12,164 bases of DNA from an uncultured bacterium (GCA_964549305.1 CAZJVM010000075.1:1-12164); one strand, 5' to 3'; shown: positions 2,262 through 12,164, counted from the stretch's first letter. Made by a program: numbers and translations. The notes: generated by a model from the sequence alone, not told the origin.

Positions 2262-2749
2262 TCGAAAACAGATTCGGTCCCAATGTACTGATTACTTCCA
2301 CTGATTACGTTTTCAACTGGGCAAGAAAATCGGCACTCTGGGGCGTCACATTCGGGCTTGCCTGCTGCGCGATTGAAATGATGGCAGCGGGAGCGGCACG
2401 CTACGATTTTTTCGAAAGGTCAGGAATGCTCTTCAGGGCGTCTCCGAGGCAGTCTGATATGATGATTATCGCGGGCACCGTTACCAAGAAAATGGCGCCT
2501 GTCATTAAAAAACTATACGACCAGATGCCCGACCCGAAATGGGTTGTGTCTATGGGCGCCTGTGCCAATACGGGCGGAATATTTCCCACATACAGCGTTG
2601 TGCAGGGAGTGGACAAAATAATACCGGTGGATGTTTATATTCCCGGCTGTCCCCCACGGCCCGAAGCCCTTTGCCACGGACTGATGATGCTGCAGGATAA
2701 AATTGACAAGATGACTATTGCGAGGAGAAAAGAAGCTGATGGGCAGTGA
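2252..2749 (+). CDS. nuoB: NADH-quinone oxidoreductase subunit B (N2 cluster)
   Basis: [25 protein letters not shown] and [10 protein letters not shown] supply all four N2 cysteine ligands. SD AAGGAG at 2239-2244. Confidence 0.97.
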
Positions 2750-3203
2750 AAGTCTTGCAGAGCGTTTGGCTGAAAAATTCGGTGACGCGGTAGAGAGCGT
2801 GCCTCCTTTGAGAGACCTCGAGAGCGAAACTACATTCAAGGTGAAAGCGTCGAGGATTGTGGATATATGCCTTTACCTCAAGAATGAGGAAAAATTCAAT
2901 TTTCTTTCAGACCTTTGCGGCGTCCACTATCCTGAAAACGACAAAAAATTCGAAGTGGTGTACCACCTTTTTTCCATTGATAACAATAAAAGACTGAGAA
3001 TAAAAGCGCCTCTGGGCCAGGGCGAGAGCATCGCCTCCGTTACCGGTGTGTGGGAAACGGCAAACTGGCACGAAAGAGAGTGCTACGATATGTTGGGAAT
3101 AAACTTTTCGGGACATCCCGACCTTCGGCGCATTCTTCTGCCGGATGATTTTACGGGACATCCTTTGAGAAAAGATTTTCCCTACAGGAGTGAAGATGCC
3201 TGA
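2739..3203 (+). CDS. nuoC: NADH-quinone oxidoreductase subunit C, short form (154 aa)
   Basis: [44 protein letters not shown] and [12 protein letters not shown] 2739 (AGGAG at 2723-2727) is preferred over the TTG at 2718 used in the ORF track. Confidence 0.95.
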
Positions 3204-4320
3204 AGAAGTGAAAGATAACGGCGGTTTCAAAACCGAAGAAATAATCGTCAATATGGGACCACAGCACCCAAGCACCCACGGCGTGCTTCGTCTCATACTT
3301 ACCCTTGACGGCGAAGTCGTGAAAGACAGCGAAGTTGTAGTTGGATATCTTCACCGCGGTGTGGAAAAACTCTGCGAGCAGAGAGATTACAGGCAGAATG
3401 TGGTCTATACCGACCGTCTCGATTATGTTGCCTCGATGAGCAACAATCTTGCCTATGTGCTTGCCGTGGAAAAGCTTATGGGCATTGAAATTCCCGAGCG
3501 CGCGGACTACATAAGGGTGCTCGTTACGGAATTGCAGAGAATAGCGAGCCATCTTCTGTGGCTCGGCACTCACGCAATGGATATAGGGGCGGTAACTGTT
3601 TTCCTTTACTGCTTCAGGGAGAGGGAGGATATCCTCGACCTTTTTGAAATGCTCAGCGGCGCGCGCCTTACATATAACTATATAAATGTAGGCGGAGTTG
3701 CCGCGGATTTGCCCGACGGTTTCAGGGAAAGAGCACAGAAATTCCTTGACGATTTCCCCGGGCATATCGGGGAATACGAACAGTTGTTGAGTAAAAACAG
3801 GATGTGGCTTGACAGAACCGTGGATGTGGGAATCATCTGCGCGGAGGACGCAATTGATTTGGGTTTGAGCGGTCCGAGTCTCAGAGGGTCCGGTGTTAAA
3901 TGGGATATAAGGAAAGCCCAACCCTACTCCATATATGATCGTTTTGATTTTCAGGTACCAATAGGGTCAAAGGGCGACACTTACGACAGATATATCATCA
4001 GAATGGAAGAGATGAGACAAAGCGTGAAGATTGCGAAGGATGCCCTTTCGCGCATTCCCGAAGGCGAGATTATGGCAAAAGTTCCAAGAATAATAAAACC
4101 GCCCGCAGGCGAGGTTTATCATTCAATAGAAGCGCCTAAAGGCGAATTGGGATTTTATATCGTAAGCGACGGCAGTGACAAGCCATACAGGGTCAAGGTC
4201 AGGCCTCCTTCATTTGTAAATCTTGAATCATTCGGAAAAATGGTAAAGGGACATCTTGTCGCCGATGTCATAGCCGTAATAGGCACTCTCGATATCGTAC
4301 TCGGAGAGGTGGACAGATAA
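3196..4320 (+). CDS. nuoD: NADH-quinone oxidoreductase subunit D, short form (374 aa)
   Basis: NMGPQHPSTHGVLRL, GYLHRGVEK, DRLDY, EAPKGELG and C-terminal DIVLGEVDR. The quinone-site His and Tyr are present and NiFe CxxC motifs are absent. ATG 3196 follows AGGAG (3186-3190), so it is preferred over GTG 3190. Confidence 0.97.
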   Translation: MPEEVKDNGGFKTEEIIVNMGPQHPSTHGVLRLILTLDGEVVKDSEVVVGYLHRGVEKLCEQRDYRQNVVYTDRLDYVASMSNNLAYVLAVEKLMGIEIPERADYIRVLVTELQRIASHLLWLGTHAMDIGAVTVFLYCFREREDILDLFEMLSGARLTYNYINVGGVAADLPDGFRERAQKFLDDFPGHIGEYEQLLSKNRMWLDRTVDVGIICAEDAIDLGLSGPSLRGSGVKWDIRKAQPYSIYDRFDFQVPIGSKGDTYDRYIIRMEEMRQSVKIAKDALSRIPEGEIMAKVPRIIKPPAGEVYHSIEAPKGELGFYIVSDGSDKPYRVKVRPPSFVNLESFGKMVKGHLVADVIAVIGTLDIVLGEVDR

Positions 4321-5486
4321 TGGATGTAATAATAAGAGACATTGTCACCGCGCTTATAAAAATTGTTGTAGTAATGGGTGTAGTCGCTCTCGGCGTGGCG
4401 TATACGGCATATCTCGAAAGGAAGGTCTGCGCGTGGATTCAGTCGCGCCTCGGACCGATGAGGGTGGGGTATCACGGCATACTTCAGCCCATAGCTGACG
4501 GACTCAAGCTGTTCATAAAAGAAGACATCATTCCAATGAAGGCGGATAAGATTCTCTTTTATCTCTGCCCCGTAATCTGCCTTATTCCGGCATTCACTGT
4601 GCTTGCCGTAATTCCCTGGTCCCCTGATTTTTACATTACGGATATCAATGTGGGTCTTCTCTATATATTTGCCGTTTCATCATTGGGAGTATTCGGGCTT
4701 GTAATGGCAGGATGGGCTTCAAACAGCAAATACCCACTGCTTGGCGGGCTTCGTTCCGCTGCTCAGATGGTCAGTTATGAAGTTTCGATAGGGCTGTCGG
4801 TAATAGGTGTGCTTATCTTTGCCCAGTCCCTTTCGATGGTTGAAATAATAGAAAAACAGGCGCAGTCAGGTGTGTGGTTTGTATTTTTACAGCCACTGGG
4901 TTTTGTACTCTACATGGTTTGCGCCCTTGCGGAAACAAACAGACTTCCCTTTGACCTTCCCGAAGCTGAAACCGAGCTTGTGGCAGGTTATCAGACGGAA
5001 TACAGCGGAATGAAGTTTGCGTTCTTCTATCTCGCGGAATATATGAATATGATTGTCGTCTCGGCAATAGGCGTAACGCTGTTTCTCGGCGGATGGGGAA
5101 GTCCTCTCGGATTTCTCAACATTCAGATACCCGAAAGCGTCGGAGTGCTGAAGCCCATTCTTGACGGGGCTATTCCAGCTTTCTGGTTTTGCCTCAAAAT
5201 AGTGGCAATACTCTTCGTTTTTATATGGATAAGATGGACTTTCCCGAGATACCGCTATGACCAGTTGATGCACATCGGGTGGAAGATGCTTCTGCCTCTC
5301 ACGCTCGCGAATATAGTTTTTGCGGGAGTGGAGCATTTCTTTTATGAAAAGTACGACTGGTATATTTTTTATCCTGTAGTTTGGATAATTACGGCTCTCA
5401 TCATAGTCCTTTCATTCAAGTTTATAAAAAATTTTGAAAATTACTGCATTTCAAGAAGAAGCACTGAAGAGGAAAATGCTTTTTAG
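4320..5486 (+). CDS. nuoH: NADH-quinone oxidoreductase subunit H with C-terminal extension
   Basis: YLERK...QSRLGPMRVG, QPIADGLKLFIKED, LRSAAQMVSYE, AETNRLPFDLPEAETELVAGY and PRYRYDQLM. The start overlaps the nuoD stop (TAATG). Confidence 0.97.
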   Translation: MDVIIRDIVTALIKIVVVMGVVALGVAYTAYLERKVCAWIQSRLGPMRVGYHGILQPIADGLKLFIKEDIIPMKADKILFYLCPVICLIPAFTVLAVIPWSPDFYITDINVGLLYIFAVSSLGVFGLVMAGWASNSKYPLLGGLRSAAQMVSYEVSIGLSVIGVLIFAQSLSMVEIIEKQAQSGVWFVFLQPLGFVLYMVCALAETNRLPFDLPEAETELVAGYQTEYSGMKFAFFYLAEYMNMIVVSAIGVTLFLGGWGSPLGFLNIQIPESVGVLKPILDGAIPAFWFCLKIVAILFVFIWIRWTFPRYRYDQLMHIGWKMLLPLTLANIVFAGVEHFFYEKYDWYIFYPVVWIITALIIVLSFKFIKNFENYCISRRSTEEENAF

Positions 5487-5501: not shown

Positions 5502-6053
5502 ATGAAAATGGATGATTATATTGTAATTTCACGTGAGAACGCGGAGAGGAAGGAAGAACTTTGGTATGACTTCTTTCAGGATTTGCGCTCAGGATTTGAA
5601 GTTACGCTGAAATATATGTTCAGCCGCAAGGTTACAATGCAGTATCCCTATGAAAAATCGACTAAGGAGTGGGAAATACCTGAAAGTTGGAGAGGACTTC
5701 ACGGGCATGCGCTCAAGGAGGACGGGTCTTTAAAATGCATAGGTTGCGGTCTTTGCGCGAGAGTTTGCCCCGACGGTTGCATTACCATAGAAACTGAGGG
5801 GAAGGGGAAGGACAAAAAGATAACTGTTTTCACTGTTGACCTTTCAAGATGTTCCTTTTGCGGATTGTGTTTCAAGTCCTGTCCCGTTGACGCAATACTG
5901 CCTACGGAAGAATATGAACTTTCCTGCGGAAGCAGAGAAAATTTCGTGTATCCCCTTAACAAGCTTATTGAAAACTGGGAAAAGAGCAAGAAGAGCAAAA
6001 CCGTGAAACCGGAAATCAAGGAAGAAGAGACGGAGGCAGAGGAGAAAAAATAA
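5502..6053 (+). CDS. nuoI: NADH-quinone oxidoreductase subunit I (2x[4Fe-4S])
   Basis: VTMQYP...WRGLH, CIGCGLCARVCP (5736-5771) and CSFCGLCFKSCP (5850-5885); position between nuoH and nuoJ. Confidence 0.95.
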   Translation: MKMDDYIVISRENAERKEELWYDFFQDLRSGFEVTLKYMFSRKVTMQYPYEKSTKEWEIPESWRGLHGHALKEDGSLKCIGCGLCARVCPDGCITIETEGKGKDKKITVFTVDLSRCSFCGLCFKSCPVDAILPTEEYELSCGSRENFVYPLNKLIENWEKSKKSKTVKPEIKEEETEAEEKK

Positions 6054-6574
6054 TGGAATCTTTAACTTTATCTGCTATGGCAAATTACGGTATTTTCTTT
6101 TTCCTTGCCGCTCTTACTCTCTTTTCCGCGATTATGGTCATTACGCGCGAGGAGATAGTACACAGCGCGCTTTATCTCGTGCTTACATTTTTTTCCGTTG
6201 CGGGAATTTACATACAGCTTAAGGCGCAGTTTCTCGCGGCAGTGCAGGTGCTTGTCTATGCAGGCGGAATAATGGTGCTCTATCTTTTTGTAATTCTTCT
6301 TGTTAACAAACGTGTGGGGGAAATAGCGCGCCCGCAGACGTCATTCAAGTTTCTTGCCGCTGTTATAGGTGTAACGCTTTTTCTGGAGTTTGTTTATATC
6401 TTCATAGAATCGGGCAAAAAAATTGCTTCGCTCGTATCGGGCTCTTTTTTCGAGGGCACCATAGAGAATGTGGGCGTTATGCTTTATACGAAATATATCT
6501 TTCAGTTTGAGCTTGTATCGGTTGTCCTTCTCGCGGCGATGGTAGGGGCGATAGTGCTCAGCAGAAAAATTTAG
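6053..6574 (+). CDS. nuoJ: NADH-quinone oxidoreductase subunit J
   Basis: VHSALYL, AQFLAAVQVLVYAGGIMVLYLFVILL and FELVSVVLLAAMVGAIVL. TAATG overlap with nuoI. Confidence 0.96.
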   Translation: MESLTLSAMANYGIFFFLAALTLFSAIMVITREEIVHSALYLVLTFFSVAGIYIQLKAQFLAAVQVLVYAGGIMVLYLFVILLVNKRVGEIARPQTSFKFLAAVIGVTLFLEFVYIFIESGKKIASLVSGSFFEGTIENVGVMLYTKYIFQFELVSVVLLAAMVGAIVLSRKI

Positions 6575-6585
6575 GAGAATAATTT

Positions 6586-6888
6586 ATGATTCCTTTAAGC
6601 TGGTATCTTTTACTTAGCGCGCTTCTATTTATTGTAGGGGCAATCGGAGTCATTACGAGAAAGAACGCGCTCATAATATTAATGTCACTCGAATTGATGC
6701 TTAACTCCGCGGCAATAAATTTCATTGCCTTCTCGAGTTATCTTCGCGACGTTGCGGGGCAGATATTCGTGATAATGATAATTACGATTGCCGCGTCTGA
6801 GGCGGCTATAGGTCTTGCCATCATTATTTCGATGTTCAGAAATAAGGGAAGCGTGAACCTCGATGATTACGGAGTTTTAAAGGGATAA
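6586..6888 (+). CDS. nuoK: NADH-quinone oxidoreductase subunit K
   Basis: 100 aa; RKNALIILMSLELMLN and IAASEAAIGLAI retain both conserved glutamates. SD AGGAG upstream. Confidence 0.97.
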   Translation: MIPLSWYLLLSALLFIVGAIGVITRKNALIILMSLELMLNSAAINFIAFSSYLRDVAGQIFVIMIITIAASEAAIGLAIIISMFRNKGSVNLDDYGVLKG

Positions 6889-6894
6889 AACACT

Positions 6895-8955
6895 ATGCAG
6901 CTACTTTTTATAATACCGCTTCTTTTTGCCGCCGGATTTCTGATTAACGGTACGGCAGGGCTTCTTTCGGAAAAATACAGAAACTCGGAAAAAATAATAC
7001 ACACCGTTGCCTGCGGCGTAGCCATTGCTGCTTCGGCTACTGCCCTTTACGTGCTTGCCGATTTCATATTCATCAATCATCCGGAAAGCGGAATTTTCGA
7101 GCAGGTTATCTATGAATGGATTCCTGCGGGAAAATTCAGGGTGAATGCGGGGTTTCAGCTCGACGCCCTTTCGTCCATAATGCTTTTTGTCGTTACATTT
7201 GTGGGAATGCTCATACATATTTATTCAACGGGATATATGCATGGCGATTCGGGCTATTACCGTTTTTTCGCCTATCTCAACCTCTTTATGTTTTCAATGC
7301 TTCTTCTTATCCTCGGAAACAATTTTCTGATTATGTTTGTTGGATGGGAAGGCGTCGGACTCTGCTCGTATCTTCTCATAGGATTTTACATACTTAAAAA
7401 GTCAGCCGGCGATGCCGGGAAGAAGGCATTTGTAGTAAACAGAATAGGGGATTTCGGATTTATACTTGCAATATTCTGCATCTATTCCGTATTCGGCACT
7501 CTTGACTTCACTACTATTTTTTCCGCGGTCGAGGGTAAAGAGGAAGCGCTTATGCATATGACTCCTCTCGGGATTACGGTAGTTACGGCAATAACGCTTT
7601 CACTTTTCATAGGCGCTATGGGAAAGTCGGCGCAGATTCCGCTTTATGTCTGGCTTCCCGATGCTATGGAAGGTCCTACGCCTGTGAGCGCCCTTATTCA
7701 CGCGGCGACGATGGTTACGGCAGGTGTCTATATGGTTGCGCGCTGTAATCCTTTATATAATCTCGCTCCTCTCAGTCTCGCAGTCGTTGCGACTGTGGGT
7801 GCGCTTACGGCTATATTCGCCGCGTCCATAGGCCTTGTGCAGAATGACATTAAAAAAGTTCTCGCCTATTCAACGGTGAGCCAGCTTGGATATATGTTTC
7901 TCGGTTGCGGAGTGGGAGCATACGAGGCGGGAGTTTTTCATCTTATGACACACGCTTTTTTCAAGGGGTGCCTCTTTCTCGGCTCGGGAAGCGTTATTCA
8001 CGCCATGAGCGGCGAGCAGGATATGAGATATATGGGAGGGCTTAAAAAACATATGCCGCGCACATACTGGACATTCCTTTTCGCTACCATCGCTATCGCG
8101 GGAATTCCTCCTTTCGCGGGATTTTTCAGCAAGGATGAAATTCTCTTCAAGGCATTTACTGCGGAGAATCCCGTATTGGGCGATTTCAGGTATTTCCTGT
8201 GGTTTTTGGGTGCCGTAGCGGCGTTTATGACTTCATTCTATATGTTCAGACTCGTAAATTTGACATTCAAGGGAGAATCGAGAGTTTCAGAAGAGGCGGC
8301 GCATCATCTTCACGAATCTCCCCTCAATATAACTTTGCCTCTTATGGTGCTTGGCGTCCTTTCCCTCATTGGAGGACTTGTTGGAATTCCTCTTATTCCC
8401 GGCGCAAACAGAATCCACGAATTTCTGGGGCCTGTTTTTGGCGCGGGCGGACACGGCGAAGAAGTGCTTCATGCCGCGGGAGAGCATAATATGGGACTTG
8501 AAATTACTCTTATGATTGTTTCAGTGGCGATTGCTGTGGGAGGATTACTCCTTGCAAATTATTTGTATCTTAAAAACAAGGAATTGCCGGCAAAGCTGGC
8601 GGGGAAATACAAACAGCTTTATACCACTTTGCTGAACAAATACTACGTGGACGAAATTTACGAAGCGCTTTTTGTCAACGGAATTAAAAAACTATCTGTA
8701 TATTTCTGGAAATTCGATGCCGCAAGGATAGACGGACTGGTAAATTTCACGAGTTCCTTTACTCTCGCTGTAAGCTATGTTTCCAACTTATGGGATGCCT
8801 ATATTGTTGACGGAATGGTAAACGGCGTAGCATCTCTTGTGGAGCGTTTTTCAAAAGCAGGAAGAAAAATTCAGACAGGTTTTTTAAATACCTATGCCGC
8901 AATAATGCTCGCGGGAGTATTCATACTTGTGAGCATATATATTGTAATGATGTAA
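6895..8955 (+). CDS. nuoL: NADH-quinone oxidoreductase subunit L with lengthened lateral helix
   Basis: HIYSTGYM, GWEGVGLCSYLLIGF, NRIGD, MGKSAQIPLYVWLPDAMEGPTPVSALIHAATMV, FFSKDEIL and NKYYVDE...QTG followed by a final TM helix. Confidence 0.97.
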   Translation: MQLLFIIPLLFAAGFLINGTAGLLSEKYRNSEKIIHTVACGVAIAASATALYVLADFIFINHPESGIFEQVIYEWIPAGKFRVNAGFQLDALSSIMLFVVTFVGMLIHIYSTGYMHGDSGYYRFFAYLNLFMFSMLLLILGNNFLIMFVGWEGVGLCSYLLIGFYILKKSAGDAGKKAFVVNRIGDFGFILAIFCIYSVFGTLDFTTIFSAVEGKEEALMHMTPLGITVVTAITLSLFIGAMGKSAQIPLYVWLPDAMEGPTPVSALIHAATMVTAGVYMVARCNPLYNLAPLSLAVVATVGALTAIFAASIGLVQNDIKKVLAYSTVSQLGYMFLGCGVGAYEAGVFHLMTHAFFKGCLFLGSGSVIHAMSGEQDMRYMGGLKKHMPRTYWTFLFATIAIAGIPPFAGFFSKDEILFKAFTAENPVLGDFRYFLWFLGAVAAFMTSFYMFRLVNLTFKGESRVSEEAAHHLHESPLNITLPLMVLGVLSLIGGLVGIPLIPGANRIHEFLGPVFGAGGHGEEVLHAAGEHNMGLEITLMIVSVAIAVGGLLLANYLYLKNKELPAKLAGKYKQLYTTLLNKYYVDEIYEALFVNGIKKLSVYFWKFDAARIDGLVNFTSSFTLAVSYVSNLWDAYIVDGMVNGVASLVERFSKAGRKIQTGFLNTYAAIMLAGVFILVSIYIVMM
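8713..8823 (+). repeat. In-frame degenerate tandem repeat, period 78 bp / 26 aa, within the NuoL amphipathic helix
   Basis: FDAARIDGLVN (8713-8745) recurs as WDAYIVDGMVN (8791-8823). At DNA level gatgcc occurs at 8716 and 8794, and gacggactggtaaa (8731) matches gacggaatggtaaa (8809) at 13/14 positions. Confidence 0.85.
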
Positions 8956-8980
8956 AAAATAGAAACCGGAGGATAAATTG

Positions 8981-10675
8981 ATGGACTTAAATTATTCATC
9001 GTATCTTGGTGATGCATATTCGTATGTGAACCAGATAGGATTTCCAATACTTTCATATTTGATTTTTATCCCGCTTCTGGGCGGAATTATTCTGATGTTT
9101 TTTCCAAAGGATAAAATCAACGGGATAAAAATATTCGCGAATCTCGTCGCGGTCATCGATATGCTTCTCTCTTTTATGCTTCTTACCAACTATGACGCTT
9201 CAACATACAAAATGCAGTTTGTGGAGAAGTTTTCGTGGATTGAAGTGAAGTCGATGAATCTGAATATTTATTATTTTCTCGGAATAGACGGAATAAGCGT
9301 TCTGCTCTACCTGCTTACTACGATTCTCGGTGTCATTGCCATACTTTCATCGTGGTCCGCGATTACGGAAAGGGTAAAGGAATATTATATTTTTCTTCTC
9401 TTTCTTCAGACGGGAATGCTCGGAGTTTTCGCGTCTCTTGATTTTTTCCTTTTCTACGTATTCTGGGAAGTGATGCTTGTTCCAATGTATTTTCTCATAG
9501 GCGTTTGGGGAGGAGGTCCGAGAAAGCTCTATTCTGCAATAAAGTTTTTCCTTTATACATTGTTCGGGTCGCTATTTATGCTCCTTGGAATACTAGCGCT
9601 TTTCTTTCATTACAATGGGACGCATCCGGGCGTATATACCTTTGATCTTATGAGACTGCTCAATGACGAGATTCCATACGTGTGGCAGTGGTGGCTTTTC
9701 CTCGCTTTCTTTCTCGGCTTTGCAATCAAGGTGCCAATGTTTCCCTTTCATACGTGGTTGCCTGATGCACACGTTGACGCGCCTACGGCAGGAAGCGTTA
9801 TCCTTGCGGGTGTGCTTTTGAAAATGGGCGCATACGGATTCCTGAGATTCAGTATGCCGCTTTTCCCCGAGGCGACAAGGGATTTTGTCCCCTTCGTGGC
9901 GACTCTTTCGGTCATAGGGATTATTTACGGCGCAATGGTTGCCCTTGTGCAAAAGGATATGAAGAAGCTCGTTGCTTACTCGAGTGTAAGCCATCTCGGA
10001 TTCTGTATGATAGGGCTTTTTGCCCTGAATTCGCAGGCAATGATGGGCAGTATTCTCCAAATGATAAATCACGGCATCAGCACCGGCGGGCTTTTCCTTA
10101 TAGTGGGATTAATCTATGAAAGAAGGCATAACAGGGAGATTGCCGAATACGGAGGGCTATCAAGCCGGCTTCCTGTTTATTCGGCGCTAACATTGATAAT
10201 ATTTCTTTCTTCAATGGGACTACCGGGAATGAACGGTTTTATAGGTGAATTTCTGATTCTTCTCGGTGTTTTCAATTCTCAGTATCTGGGATGGATTTGG
10301 GCGGCATTATCCTGCACGGGAATTATTCTCGGCGCGGCATATCTGCTTTGGCTTTATCAGCGCGTTTTCTTCGGCAAACTTTGGAATCCGAAAAACGCTA
10401 ATCTCAAGGATCTCAATTTCAGGGAGATTGTAACGCTTGCGCCTATTATTCTTTTTATTTTCTGGATAGGCATTTACCCAAAACCATTTTTGAAGATTTT
10501 GGAAAAACCGGTAGAGCATCTTGCTTTGAGACTCGCGCCTGAGAATGCCCAAAGCGAAAAAGTTGCGGAGGAAGTAATAGACAAGAAAATAATTTCCGCT
10601 TCCGCGTTATCTAATGAACATGAAACTGTCTCAGAAATTTCGGACGCCGTCAGCGAAACAGGCAAGGAATTATAG
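8981..10675 (+). CDS. nuoM: NADH-quinone oxidoreductase subunit M
   Basis: LGIDGIS, FYVFWEVMLVPMY, AIKVPMFPFHTWLPDAHVDAPT, LLKMGAYG and GFIGEF. ATG 8981 (GGAGG at 8968-8972) is preferred over TTG 8978. Confidence 0.97.
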   Translation: MDLNYSSYLGDAYSYVNQIGFPILSYLIFIPLLGGIILMFFPKDKINGIKIFANLVAVIDMLLSFMLLTNYDASTYKMQFVEKFSWIEVKSMNLNIYYFLGIDGISVLLYLLTTILGVIAILSSWSAITERVKEYYIFLLFLQTGMLGVFASLDFFLFYVFWEVMLVPMYFLIGVWGGGPRKLYSAIKFFLYTLFGSLFMLLGILALFFHYNGTHPGVYTFDLMRLLNDEIPYVWQWWLFLAFFLGFAIKVPMFPFHTWLPDAHVDAPTAGSVILAGVLLKMGAYGFLRFSMPLFPEATRDFVPFVATLSVIGIIYGAMVALVQKDMKKLVAYSSVSHLGFCMIGLFALNSQAMMGSILQMINHGISTGGLFLIVGLIYERRHNREIAEYGGLSSRLPVYSALTLIIFLSSMGLPGMNGFIGEFLILLGVFNSQYLGWIWAALSCTGIILGAAYLLWLYQRVFFGKLWNPKNANLKDLNFREIVTLAPIILFIFWIGIYPKPFLKILEKPVEHLALRLAPENAQSEKVAEEVIDKKIISASALSNEHETVSEISDAVSETGKEL

Positions 10676-10692
10676 AATTAAGGATTTGATTA

Positions 10693-12164
10693 ATGGACAT
10701 ATCAGCTTTTATACCGCAGGTTAATTTAATTTATCCTGAAATTTTTCTCACGCTCTGGTCGCTTTTTCTCCTTTGTGCCGGAATTTTTCTTTCACGAAAG
10801 AGTTACGCGGTCATATCGGTTACCACTCTTATAGGATTGATTGCTACCGCGGTCATTCTTCTTTTGAATTTCGATAACTACGGCACTACATTTTCCGGTT
10901 CATTTGTTTCGGACGGTTTTTCATCCTTTTTTAAAATGCTTTTCCTCATTGCCGGAATTTTGACGGTAATGATGTCGGGGAAATACAACTTTATCGAAGG
11001 CATTATGAAGGGTGAATACTATGTTCTGATTTGTTTTTCCATCCTGGGAATGTTTGTCATTTCAAGCGGAAACGACCTTATGGTCATTTACATTGGAATA
11101 GAAATGATGGCGCTTTCTATTTACGCCCTTGTAGGCTTCAAGAAGAAGGATGTGAGGTCGAATGAGGCAGCTTTGAAATATTTTGTTCTGGGCGCGTTTT
11201 CCTCAGGAATACTCCTTTACGGAATATCCCTTATATACGGTGAAACATCATCTGTGAATATAATGGAGATTCAGACGGCGCTTCTTCAAAACGGATATTC
11301 GAAACTGAGTCTGCTGGGAATCGTGCTCATAATTGTGGGGCTTGGATTCAAGATTGCCGCTGTGCCATTTCACTTTTGGTGCCCTGATGCTTATGACGGC
11401 GCGCCTACTGCAATTACCGCATTTATGTCTGTTGCGCCCAAAGCCGCCGGATTTGCCGCATTTCTGAGGATATTTGCCGTAGCTGTCATACCGGCTAAAG
11501 ATGAATGGTTTATACTGCTGTGGATTCTTTCCGCTTTTACAATGATAATCGGAAATGTGCTCGCGGTCACTCAGGATAACGTAAAAAGGCTTCTTGCATA
11601 TTCAAGCATTGCCCACGCGGGGTATGGTCTGATGGGGTTAGTCGCGGCGAGCAGACTTATCGAAGTGAGCAACGGAAGAGTCATATTCTCCGAAGCGGGA
11701 AGATTGAGCATATATGCCGTGCTTTTCTATATGCTGGCTTATACATTTATGAATTTAGGCGCTTTTACGGTAGTAATCTTTTTGAGGAACAATTCCCTTA
11801 GGGGTGACAGAATTGAGGATTTTGCGGGACTTGCGAAAGAGAAGCCCTTTTATGCCGCGGCAATGGGAATATTTCTTCTTTCCCTTATGGGAATTCCGCC
11901 TATGGCAGGGTTTGTGGGCAAGTTCTATATTTTTGGAGCCGCTATCAAGGCGCAGCTTTACTATCTTTCGGTCATAGGAATCCTTACAAGCGCCATCTCG
12001 GTTTTTTACTATTTTAAAATCATCAAGGCGATGTATATCGATAATCCCGCTGAAGAATTCTCACTCATATCTTCAAGACCTCTTACATTGGTACTTTTCG
12101 TTTCGATGATAATGACGCTTTTAATCGGTCTTTATCCCGGACCTTTCCTCAATCTCGCGAGAGA
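10693..12164 (+). CDS. nuoN: NADH-quinone oxidoreductase subunit N, partial (no stop before window end)
   Basis: Translated by hand from ATG 10693 (TAAGGA upstream): MDISAFIPQVNLIYPEIFL...GEYYVLI...IGIEMMALSIYALVG...SNEAALKYFVLG...GFKIAAVPFHFWCPDAYDGAPT...KRLLAYSSIAHAGY...GIPPMAGFVGKFY. About 490 codons are open to the edge. Confidence 0.96.
   Translation, partial: MDISAFIPQVNLIYPEIFLTLWSLFLLCAGIFLSRKSYAVISVTTLIGLIATAVILLLNFDNYGTTFSGSFVSDGFSSFFKMLFLIAGILTVMMSGKYNFIEGIMKGEYYVLICFSILGMFVISSGNDLMVIYIGIEMMALSIYALVGFKKKDVRSNEAALKYFVLGAFSSGILLYGISLIYGETSSVNIMEIQTALLQNGYSKLSLLGIVLIIVGLGFKIAAVPFHFWCPDAYDGAPTAITAFMSVAPKAAGFAAFLRIFAVAVIPAKDEWFILLWILSAFTMIIGNVLAVTQDNVKRLLAYSSIAHAGYGLMGLVAASRLIEVSNGRVIFSEAGRLSIYAVLFYMLAYTFMNLGAFTVVIFLRNNSLRGDRIEDFAGLAKEKPFYAAAMGIFLLSLMGIPPMAGFVGKFYIFGAAIKAQLYYLSVIGILTSAISVFYYFKIIKAMYIDNPAEEFSLISSRPLTLVLFVSMIMTLLIGLYPGPFLNLAR

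Follow-up and report, generated by a model that had tools for sequence, protein, structure and literature searches.

The stretch of DNA analyzed here, a window of 12,164 nucleotides from an uncultured bacterium (GCA_964549305.1 CAZJVM010000075.1:1-12164), contains a co-directional cluster of 11 genes, nuoABCDHIJKLMN, that extends on the plus strand from 1866 to the end of the window, with open reading frames (ORFs) matching all eleven Pfam families above the curated cut-offs; these clustered genes encode NuoA, B, C, D, H, I, J, K, L, M, and N, the 11-subunit core of complex I or NDH-1. The feature of interest is the product of nuoL, whose C-terminal lateral helix exceeds the canonical length by 26 residues in an operon having a single nuoM. 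The genes are nuoA (1866–2261; Oxidored_q4), nuoB (2252–2749; Oxidored_q6), nuoC (2718–3203; Complex1_30kDa), nuoD (3190–4320; Complex1_49kDa), nuoH (4320–5486; NADHdh), nuoI (5502–6053; Fer4), nuoJ (6053–6574; Oxidored_q3), nuoK (6586–6888; Oxidored_q2), nuoL (6895–8955; 686 aa, P0001; Proton_antipo_N, Proton_antipo_M, and Proton_antipo_C), nuoM (8978–10675; Proton_antipo_M, 1.3e-81), and nuoN (10693–12162), the last of which is open at the window end with 490 aa visible, so that the visible DNA reaches up to nuoN only. Inside this cluster the ORF and Pfam scan found no nuoE, nuoF, or nuoG, since the end of nuoD coincides with the start of nuoH at 4320; and because NuoEFG are absent from the operon, the donor of the enzyme is probably other than NADH—for example, ferredoxin—or else the enzyme runs in reverse. 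The cyanobacterial NDH-1 has ferredoxin as its donor and possesses exchangeable NdhD/NdhF modules that are encoded away from the core genes. The nearest named NuoL among the 120 that we kept was that of a Candidatus Schekmanbacteria metagenome-assembled genome (MAG; P0005, 83% identity, 685 aa), and the operon of the window belongs probably, on sequence grounds, to a relative of those bacteria.

The sole nuoM of the window yields 565 aa if translation begins at the TTG at 8978, and 564 if it begins at the ATG at 8981. The gap between the nuoL stop at 8955 and the nuoM start accordingly measures 22 nt or 25 nt, and that between the nuoM stop at 10675 and the nuoN start at 10693 measures 17 nt; therefore, a second nuoM cannot fit between nuoL and nuoN, as the original prediction had maintained in reading an L-M-N order with gaps of 25 and 17 nt. 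A GGAGGA Shine–Dalgarno sequence is located upstream of nuoM, and those of nuoB, nuoH, nuoJ, and nuoK are likewise good. We considered the translation signals and found them uninformative, GGAGGA being present before those four genes as well. The NuoM C-terminus (10525–10672) is a hydrophilic, acidic tail of about 45 residues situated outside the Pfam match (residues 153–448), owing to which tail this NuoM is longer than most of those in the related loci (about 510–545 aa).

The protein encoded by nuoL has the composition expected of a NuoL, namely a Proton_antipo_N and Proton_antipo_M core followed by the C-terminal lateral helix and a last transmembrane (TM) helix, and its best solved relatives in phmmer were the Paracoccus NuoL (8qby_L) and the NdhF of T. 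elongatus (6hum_F). On the basis of alignments and of an AlphaFold2 (AF2) model, the lateral helix (HL) extends from Y583 in YYVDE to G662 in QTG (8641–8880, plus strand, as are the elements that follow). The nucleotide placements originally given for these landmarks, 8641 for YYVDE (residue 583) and 8872 for QTG (residue 660), and the count of 78 residues to the Gln proved exact. Within this helix, repeat unit 1 (F607–L632; 8713–8790), the extra copy, displays an FD-x4-DG-x-VN motif and then a stretch with T623 and S630, whereas repeat unit 2 (W633–K658; 8791–8868) is in the alignments the counterpart of the single canonical copy. The TM16 anchor comes thereafter (F663–M686; 8881–8952), with Q660, G662, Y667, and G674 being conserved alike in the long and canonical classes. 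The two units have 8 of 26 residues identical, and no other in-frame stretch of nuoL matches unit 2 as well as unit 1 does, which result bears out the predicted 26-aa tandem duplication; the extra unit is a tandem copy of the stretch that carries D-x4-[VI]DG-x-VN.

That the extension constitutes a net addition, as had also been proposed, was evident in several comparisons. In phmmer the window NuoL exceeded both Paracoccus 8qby_L and M. smegmatis 8e9g_L by 26 residues: residues 545–617 and 634–683 each align to the Paracoccus NuoL, with query positions 608–617 and 634–643 sharing residues 648–657 of 8qby_L, and the same double alignment appears with 8e9g_L around residues 575–581. The alignment to 6hum_F (1.9e-139) stops inside unit 1, query 625 pairing with residue 622 of the 656 in that chain, and those to E. 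coli and T. thermophilus end at query 597 and 614, either in or before unit 1. The C-terminal segment of NuoL alone, when compared with the PDB, matched only the Paracoccus and Mycobacterium chains and not that of E. coli. Among the three alignments examined no solved structure had the long helix, with the Paracoccus and Mycobacterium matches split at the insertion and the NdhF match ending in unit 1. Finally, a scan of genome contigs with one genome per species provided 80 loci (best identity about 60%), whose 87 NuoL-like ORFs included 75 that reached the C-terminus; when these were aligned by MAFFT, 49 of the 75 tails lacked precisely those 26 residues and the other 26 carried the same block as the window. 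The canonical complex I (E. coli 3RKO, T. thermophilus Nqo12 4HE8, Paracoccus 8QBY, M. smegmatis 8E9G) shares with the window the antiporter core and, in NuoL, the YxDE helix start, one D-x4-[VI]DG-x-VN unit, the QTG, and TM16, but differs in a helix 26 residues shorter and in a complement of 14 subunits including NuoEFG; whereas the cyanobacterial NDH-1 (6HUM), whose NdhF was the second-best solved match, resembles the window in its 11-subunit core without NuoEFG, but differs in the canonical-length tail of NdhF.

The original prediction had furthermore considered the duplication to be still visible in the DNA, which statement holds for the part coding for the motif (29 nt at 72% with a spacing of 78, or 22 of 33 nt), but not for the unit as a whole, where 33 of 78 nt are identical and an unrelated in-frame window of nuoL reaches 34 of 78. 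Because the identity over the whole unit is not unique within nuoL, the duplication is old, and the likeness of the DNA reflects conserved residues rather than recency; a recent duplication is ruled out both by that comparison and by the occurrence of the insertion in several phyla. In the AF2 model, built from an alignment of 70 sequences, NuoL has a mean predicted local distance difference test (pLDDT) score of 84.6, and residues 583–685 form one unbroken helix as assigned by DSSP. An insertion in the form of a loop, a hairpin, or an extra TM helix was weakly rejected, given that unbroken helix, modelled with moderate confidence, and a unit that by eye is insufficiently hydrophobic.

The long helix is not peculiar to this window. 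The six closest representatives of the NuoL clusters (67–86% identity) are all 681–693 aa in length, and in the 120 cluster representatives the distance from K-Y-x-V-D-E to the C-terminus is bimodal, being 77–86 residues in 43 and 103–112 in 72, with one outlier at 55 and the motif missing in four. By its sequence the window operon belongs to a widespread class, in which complex I lacks NuoEFG and the lateral helix exceeds the normal one by a single unit. A subclade of the Terriglobia (L028, L047, L055, L062, L064, L071, L077, L080) exhibits a further insertion, glycine-rich, of some 9–10 residues (GRRK-x-G-x-VRLG), which lies early in the lateral helix and is additional to the 26-residue unit.

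Within unit 1, across 92 non-identical long-helix tails, D608, G614, and V616 were present in all 92, D613 and S630 in 91, N617 in 87, and T623 in 83; in unit 2, D634 and D639 were present in all 92. In these sequences, then, the extra unit is conserved as strongly as the original copy. The length from D608 to Q660 was 51–53 residues in 89 of the 92 tails and 62–63 in 3. Moreover, D634, D639, V642, and R657, together with the four residues cited above for the TM16 anchor, are common to 91 long and 88 canonical tails; and this retention of the canonical residues after motif 2 and in TM16 speaks for a single docking partner of TM16, common to the long and the canonical class.

To gauge the room for nuoM we used the distance from the end of nuoL to the start of nuoN, because this measure is independent of frameshifts in MAGs. 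Twenty-three of the 26 long-helix loci have nuoN downstream, and in 22 of those the spacing is 1551–1950 bp, i.e., room for one nuoM; these 22 operons are from Acidobacteriota, Methylomirabilota, a Verrucomicrobiota-named MAG, and others. The remaining locus, L049, with a spacing of 3173 bp, is the sole long-helix locus with two nuoM genes (526 and 527 aa), and its NuoL has the same 26-residue unit as that of the window. As to the 49 canonical-helix rows, five have no room downstream and 44 have nuoN downstream, at 1523–1880 bp in 38 and at 3054–4703 bp in 6. In those six wide loci nuoM and nuoN are separated by a same-strand gene that encodes not an antiporter-like subunit but a CitMHS_2 transporter (PF16980, E 1e-139 to 2e-187; L014:13660–15168, L011:11259–12698, L018:14166–15659, L019:13951–15576, L076:15009–16517, L029:13983–15461). 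Four of these loci are from Poribacteria, one from Latescibacterota, and one from Ignavibacteriae, so that this placement is kept over three phyla. The tabulation of helix length against nuoM number thus answered in two senses: over the 75 NuoL a second nuoM occurs only together with the long helix, yet the long helix is nearly always accompanied by one nuoM.

Nor did an additional subunit appear farther along: within 7.8–11.2 kb downstream of nuoL, the long-helix loci contained no extra same-strand antiporter gene. In four scanned single-nuoM loci of Acidobacteriota the genes after nuoN are those for the membrane part of the ATP synthase, atpI, atpB, and atpE, directly following the NuoEFG-less operon (L063:15327–16912, L071:15644–16910, L028:15651–17304, L054:6676–8355), with which genes we could identify the recurrent ORFs of about 150, 245, and 100 aa that had been candidates for a conserved extra subunit. 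After nuoN in L038 there are genes for a ParA-like ATPase and a DUF2513 protein and no antiporter gene.

We also constructed a quick maximum-likelihood tree of 76 NuoL rows after removal of the last 125 residues, whose backbone was poorly resolved. The long and canonical labels needed 6 changes on that tree, with the starred branches forcing at least 4, and a Terriglobia clade of 16 was long-helix throughout; there were either repeated gains or losses of the 26-residue unit, or the NuoL backbone is wrong. In a tree of 74 NuoM rooted with the window NuoN as the outgroup, the 46 NuoM of canonical operons constitute a starred clade, while all 25 NuoM of long-helix operons fall outside. Three NuoM that are canonical by an unverified default label group with the long-helix ones, and their own NuoL are fragmented or, in L021, reduced.

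An insertion of the same length at the same place has been described in the 2M complex I, whose NuoL carries about 26 extra residues in the C-terminal amphipathic helix, tied there to an extra NuoM (PMC9040806, PMC6606698); the correspondence that the original prediction had drawn with those enzymes was thereby supported in its length and position. The 2M complex I (Chadwick et al., 2018, as represented in citing papers) includes CI_1 of Nitrospira, which has neither NuoE nor NuoF (PMC6606698), the operon nuoLM1M2N of Chloroflexi (PMC7117926), and the cluster of A. capsulatum, where the supplement lists nuoL (ACP_2573), nuoM (ACP_2574), nuoM-II (ACP_2575), and nuoN (ACP_2576) and, for ACP_2566–2576, no nuoE, nuoF, or nuoG (PMC11636273). 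Such enzymes are thought to drive reverse electron flow to ferredoxin. The window operon shares with them the NuoL insertion but differs in having one nuoM and no room for a second; we have therefore not assigned that operon to the 2M complex I, whose defining second nuoM is wanting in the visible DNA, though the enzyme may nevertheless work like one. Closer in organization are Complex_I_1 and Complex_I_2 of the Manganitrophaceae, from a different phylum, which, according to Yu et al. (2022; PMC9040806), likewise combine the 26-residue insertion in NuoL with a canonical-like gene content and order. The original prediction had left aside whether operons of this kind were already on record; that they are follows from the latter paper, so that the long helix with a single nuoM has been noted in print, still unexplained, and the window adds a new, Schekmanbacteria-like member. 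In the literature searched we found no structure or stoichiometry of any 2M or long-helix complex, nor, for the named 2M complexes, an experimental demonstration of four assembled antiporter-like subunits and the raised H+/2e- ratio that they would give.

Yu et al. (2022) proposed that the Manganitrophaceae complexes may have made room for additional pumping subunits already, or else may be at a transitional stage, and left the choice open. The second of these alternatives, which was also among the predicted ones, would be that nuoM2 was recently lost or is not yet gained, with the long helix as mismatched baggage. The four or more changes of label on the NuoL tree do indicate that gains and losses occur; but the same state is common to relatives at 67–86% identity with hardly any difference in length and to the 22 operons of several phyla, while the extra unit, with motifs nearly invariant in the 92 tails, is strongly constrained and its duplication is old at the DNA level. 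We consider a relic or a transition, for these reasons, very improbable.

A further indication of what the duplicated unit might do came from an alignment of the E. coli NuoL, fetched by accession (L081), with the window and twelve of the locus NuoL tails. The E. coli residues P564-L565-N566 align with the [VI]DG motif—L565-N566 with V638-D639 of the window—and N570 with the invariant N643. According to Belevich et al. (2011; PMC3274701), P564 lies in a helix kink that contacts NuoM, and L565 and N566 are the residues nearest NuoM in 3RKO. The duplicated unit carries a motif that in alignment corresponds to the helix–NuoM contact of E. coli, which correspondence is new here and fits a helix made for one more M-type subunit.

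A helical insertion of 26 residues at a rise of 1.5 Å each measures 39 Å. If the extension is indeed helical, the long helix would present two M-type docking sites about 39 Å apart, roughly the width of one subunit, and would retain the canonical anchor on the side of NuoN; and because there are two copies of the NuoM-contact motif plus an unchanged N-side end, the helix would be a ruler for four antiporter-like positions: L, two of the M type, and N. A complex with three pumps only (L-M-N), in which the helix has another job, would instead place motif 2 on NuoN and TM16 one slot farther, beside NuoK, NuoJ, NuoA, or NuoH, to clamp the membrane arm, or else would have the extension partly bulged. 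The presence of a single nuoM in 22 of the 23 long-helix operons, so that on a plain reading the number of nuoM genes does not follow the length of the helix, accords with such a complex; so does the tolerance by E. coli (PMC3274701, Table 2) of insertions of 6–7 residues at several positions of the helix, together with the further insertions of 9–10 residues in some long-helix clades, from which the length is not absolutely fixed. Nevertheless, the segment after motif 2 and TM16 retain the canonical invariant residues, which would be unexpected if the partner differed; the length is 51–53 residues in 89 of the 92 tails; the two-nuoM operon of L049 has the same unit; and the literature (PMC9040806, PMC6606698) ties the insertion to an extra NuoM. 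Three pumps with an otherwise employed helix seem to us, on balance, unlikely.

If there are four positions, the room for only one nuoM in nearly all the long-helix operons suggests that the single NuoM most likely fills both of the middle ones, giving L-M-M-N from one gene, and that a NuoM so doubled would add one pump module. That NuoM is used twice in this manner strikes us, from the sequences compared, as a real possibility, if somewhat short of an even chance; the more general proposition, that throughout a widespread NuoEFG-less lineage one nuoM product occupies two adjacent, non-equivalent positions and the NuoL helix sets the four pump modules, we advance yet more tentatively. The coexistence in the Acidobacteriaceae of long-helix operons having one nuoM with others having two fits a copy number that can change under an unchanged architecture.

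The four positions might also be completed by a fourth subunit from elsewhere, whether an orphan nuoM or mrpD or the NuoM of a canonical operon in the same genome, for which supply the argument of the ruler would hold equally. Six of the 22 single-nuoM long-helix loci (L020, L042, L053, L054, L066, L068) contain, within 10 kb, another complex I operon in convergent orientation, and the Schekmanbacteria-named NuoL include two of canonical length (P0033 and P0055, 641–642 aa). Against such a supply, every documented second nuoM sits inside the operon, adjoining the first—in L049, in A. capsulatum (ACP_2574 and ACP_2575), and in the nuoLM1M2N of Chloroflexi—and an obligate subunit that was unlinked in 22 of 23 operons over several phyla would be unusual; nor, as noted, did the DNA downstream of nuoL contain an extra antiporter gene. 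A NuoM borrowed from a canonical operon would, in addition, be a distant paralogue, since the canonical NuoM form a clade apart from those of the long-helix operons. A fourth subunit encoded elsewhere is, in our estimation, also unlikely, slightly more so than a complex with three pumps.

The double use of NuoM, for its part, has to contend with several facts, some of which speak directly for a subunit from elsewhere. We know of no relative of complex I where the product of a single antiporter-like gene occupies two positions that are not equivalent. The window ends in nuoN, and an unlinked nuoM or mrpD may lie outside the visible DNA; many long-helix genomes, moreover, including Schekmanbacteria by name, also hold a canonical operon with a nuoM of its own. 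Three loci, the remainder of the 26 with a long helix, contain orphan long-helix nuoL-nuoM pairs amid unrelated genes, with no other nuo gene nearby (L027:9884–13679, L052:1292–5041, L070:10064–13694), whose NuoL have a further 9-residue insert of the GDGE type and which may be exchangeable distal modules; and a non-operonal nuoL and nuoM are reported for N. moscoviensis (PMC6606698). The M1 and M2 of L049, at 52% identity and unresolved on the NuoM tree, represent an old duplication, and so do not point to the recent divergence of a NuoM that had been used twice. The confidence of the AF2 model in the region of the helix is moderate, with block-mean pLDDT values of 59–75, and the contact between the helix and NuoM in E. 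coli comes from a single paper's reading of 3RKO (PMC3274701).

Some other arrangements at these loci deserve mention. Upstream of nuoA in the window, a 168-aa ORF (227–733) without a Pfam match shares its last 4 nt with the beginning of the next gene, which resembles a zinc-type alcohol dehydrogenase or quinone reductase (730–1716) and is located just before nuoA. The neighbors of the orphan pair in L027 are VWA-domain, radical SAM, and aminotransferase genes. In L021, an Acidiferrales MAG, there is a second nuo cluster on the minus strand without a full nuoL; in its place, between nuoK (15244–15546) and nuoM (13144–14820), is a 163-aa ORF with no Pfam match (P0123; 14759–15250, minus strand), which resembles only the end of NuoL—one TM helix, a lateral helix with a WCDAWVVDG-type motif, LQSG, and the last TM helix—and may stem from a deletion or a faulty assembly, or may be a clamp that stands alone. 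In L001 (14889–16070) and L002 (about 14882–16017), from Terriglobia/Solibacter, nuoH follows nuoN instead of lying between nuoD and nuoI. In five Terriglobia long-helix loci (L047, L055, L071, L077, L080) the labelling by BLAST gave an order A-C-D-H-J-K-L-M-N without nuoB and nuoI, which omission may be spurious, caused by the way ORFs are called in DNA of high GC content; the cluster of A. capsulatum lists both genes.

The number of antiporter-like modules sets the protons moved per electron pair, and that ratio decides whether a complex I can make use of low-potential donors or be run in reverse to reduced ferredoxin. If the modules are to be numbered by the length of the helix and not by the genes, surveys based on nuoM counts would underestimate the four-pump enzymes. 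If, further, one nuoM product does fill two positions, most four-pump enzymes in nature would escape such surveys, and the 2M operons would be later, subfunctionalized versions of the same architecture. The long-helix NuoL also offers a clean natural test of the role of the lateral helix, as a clamp or ruler versus a coupling element, which question has been debated since the first structures.

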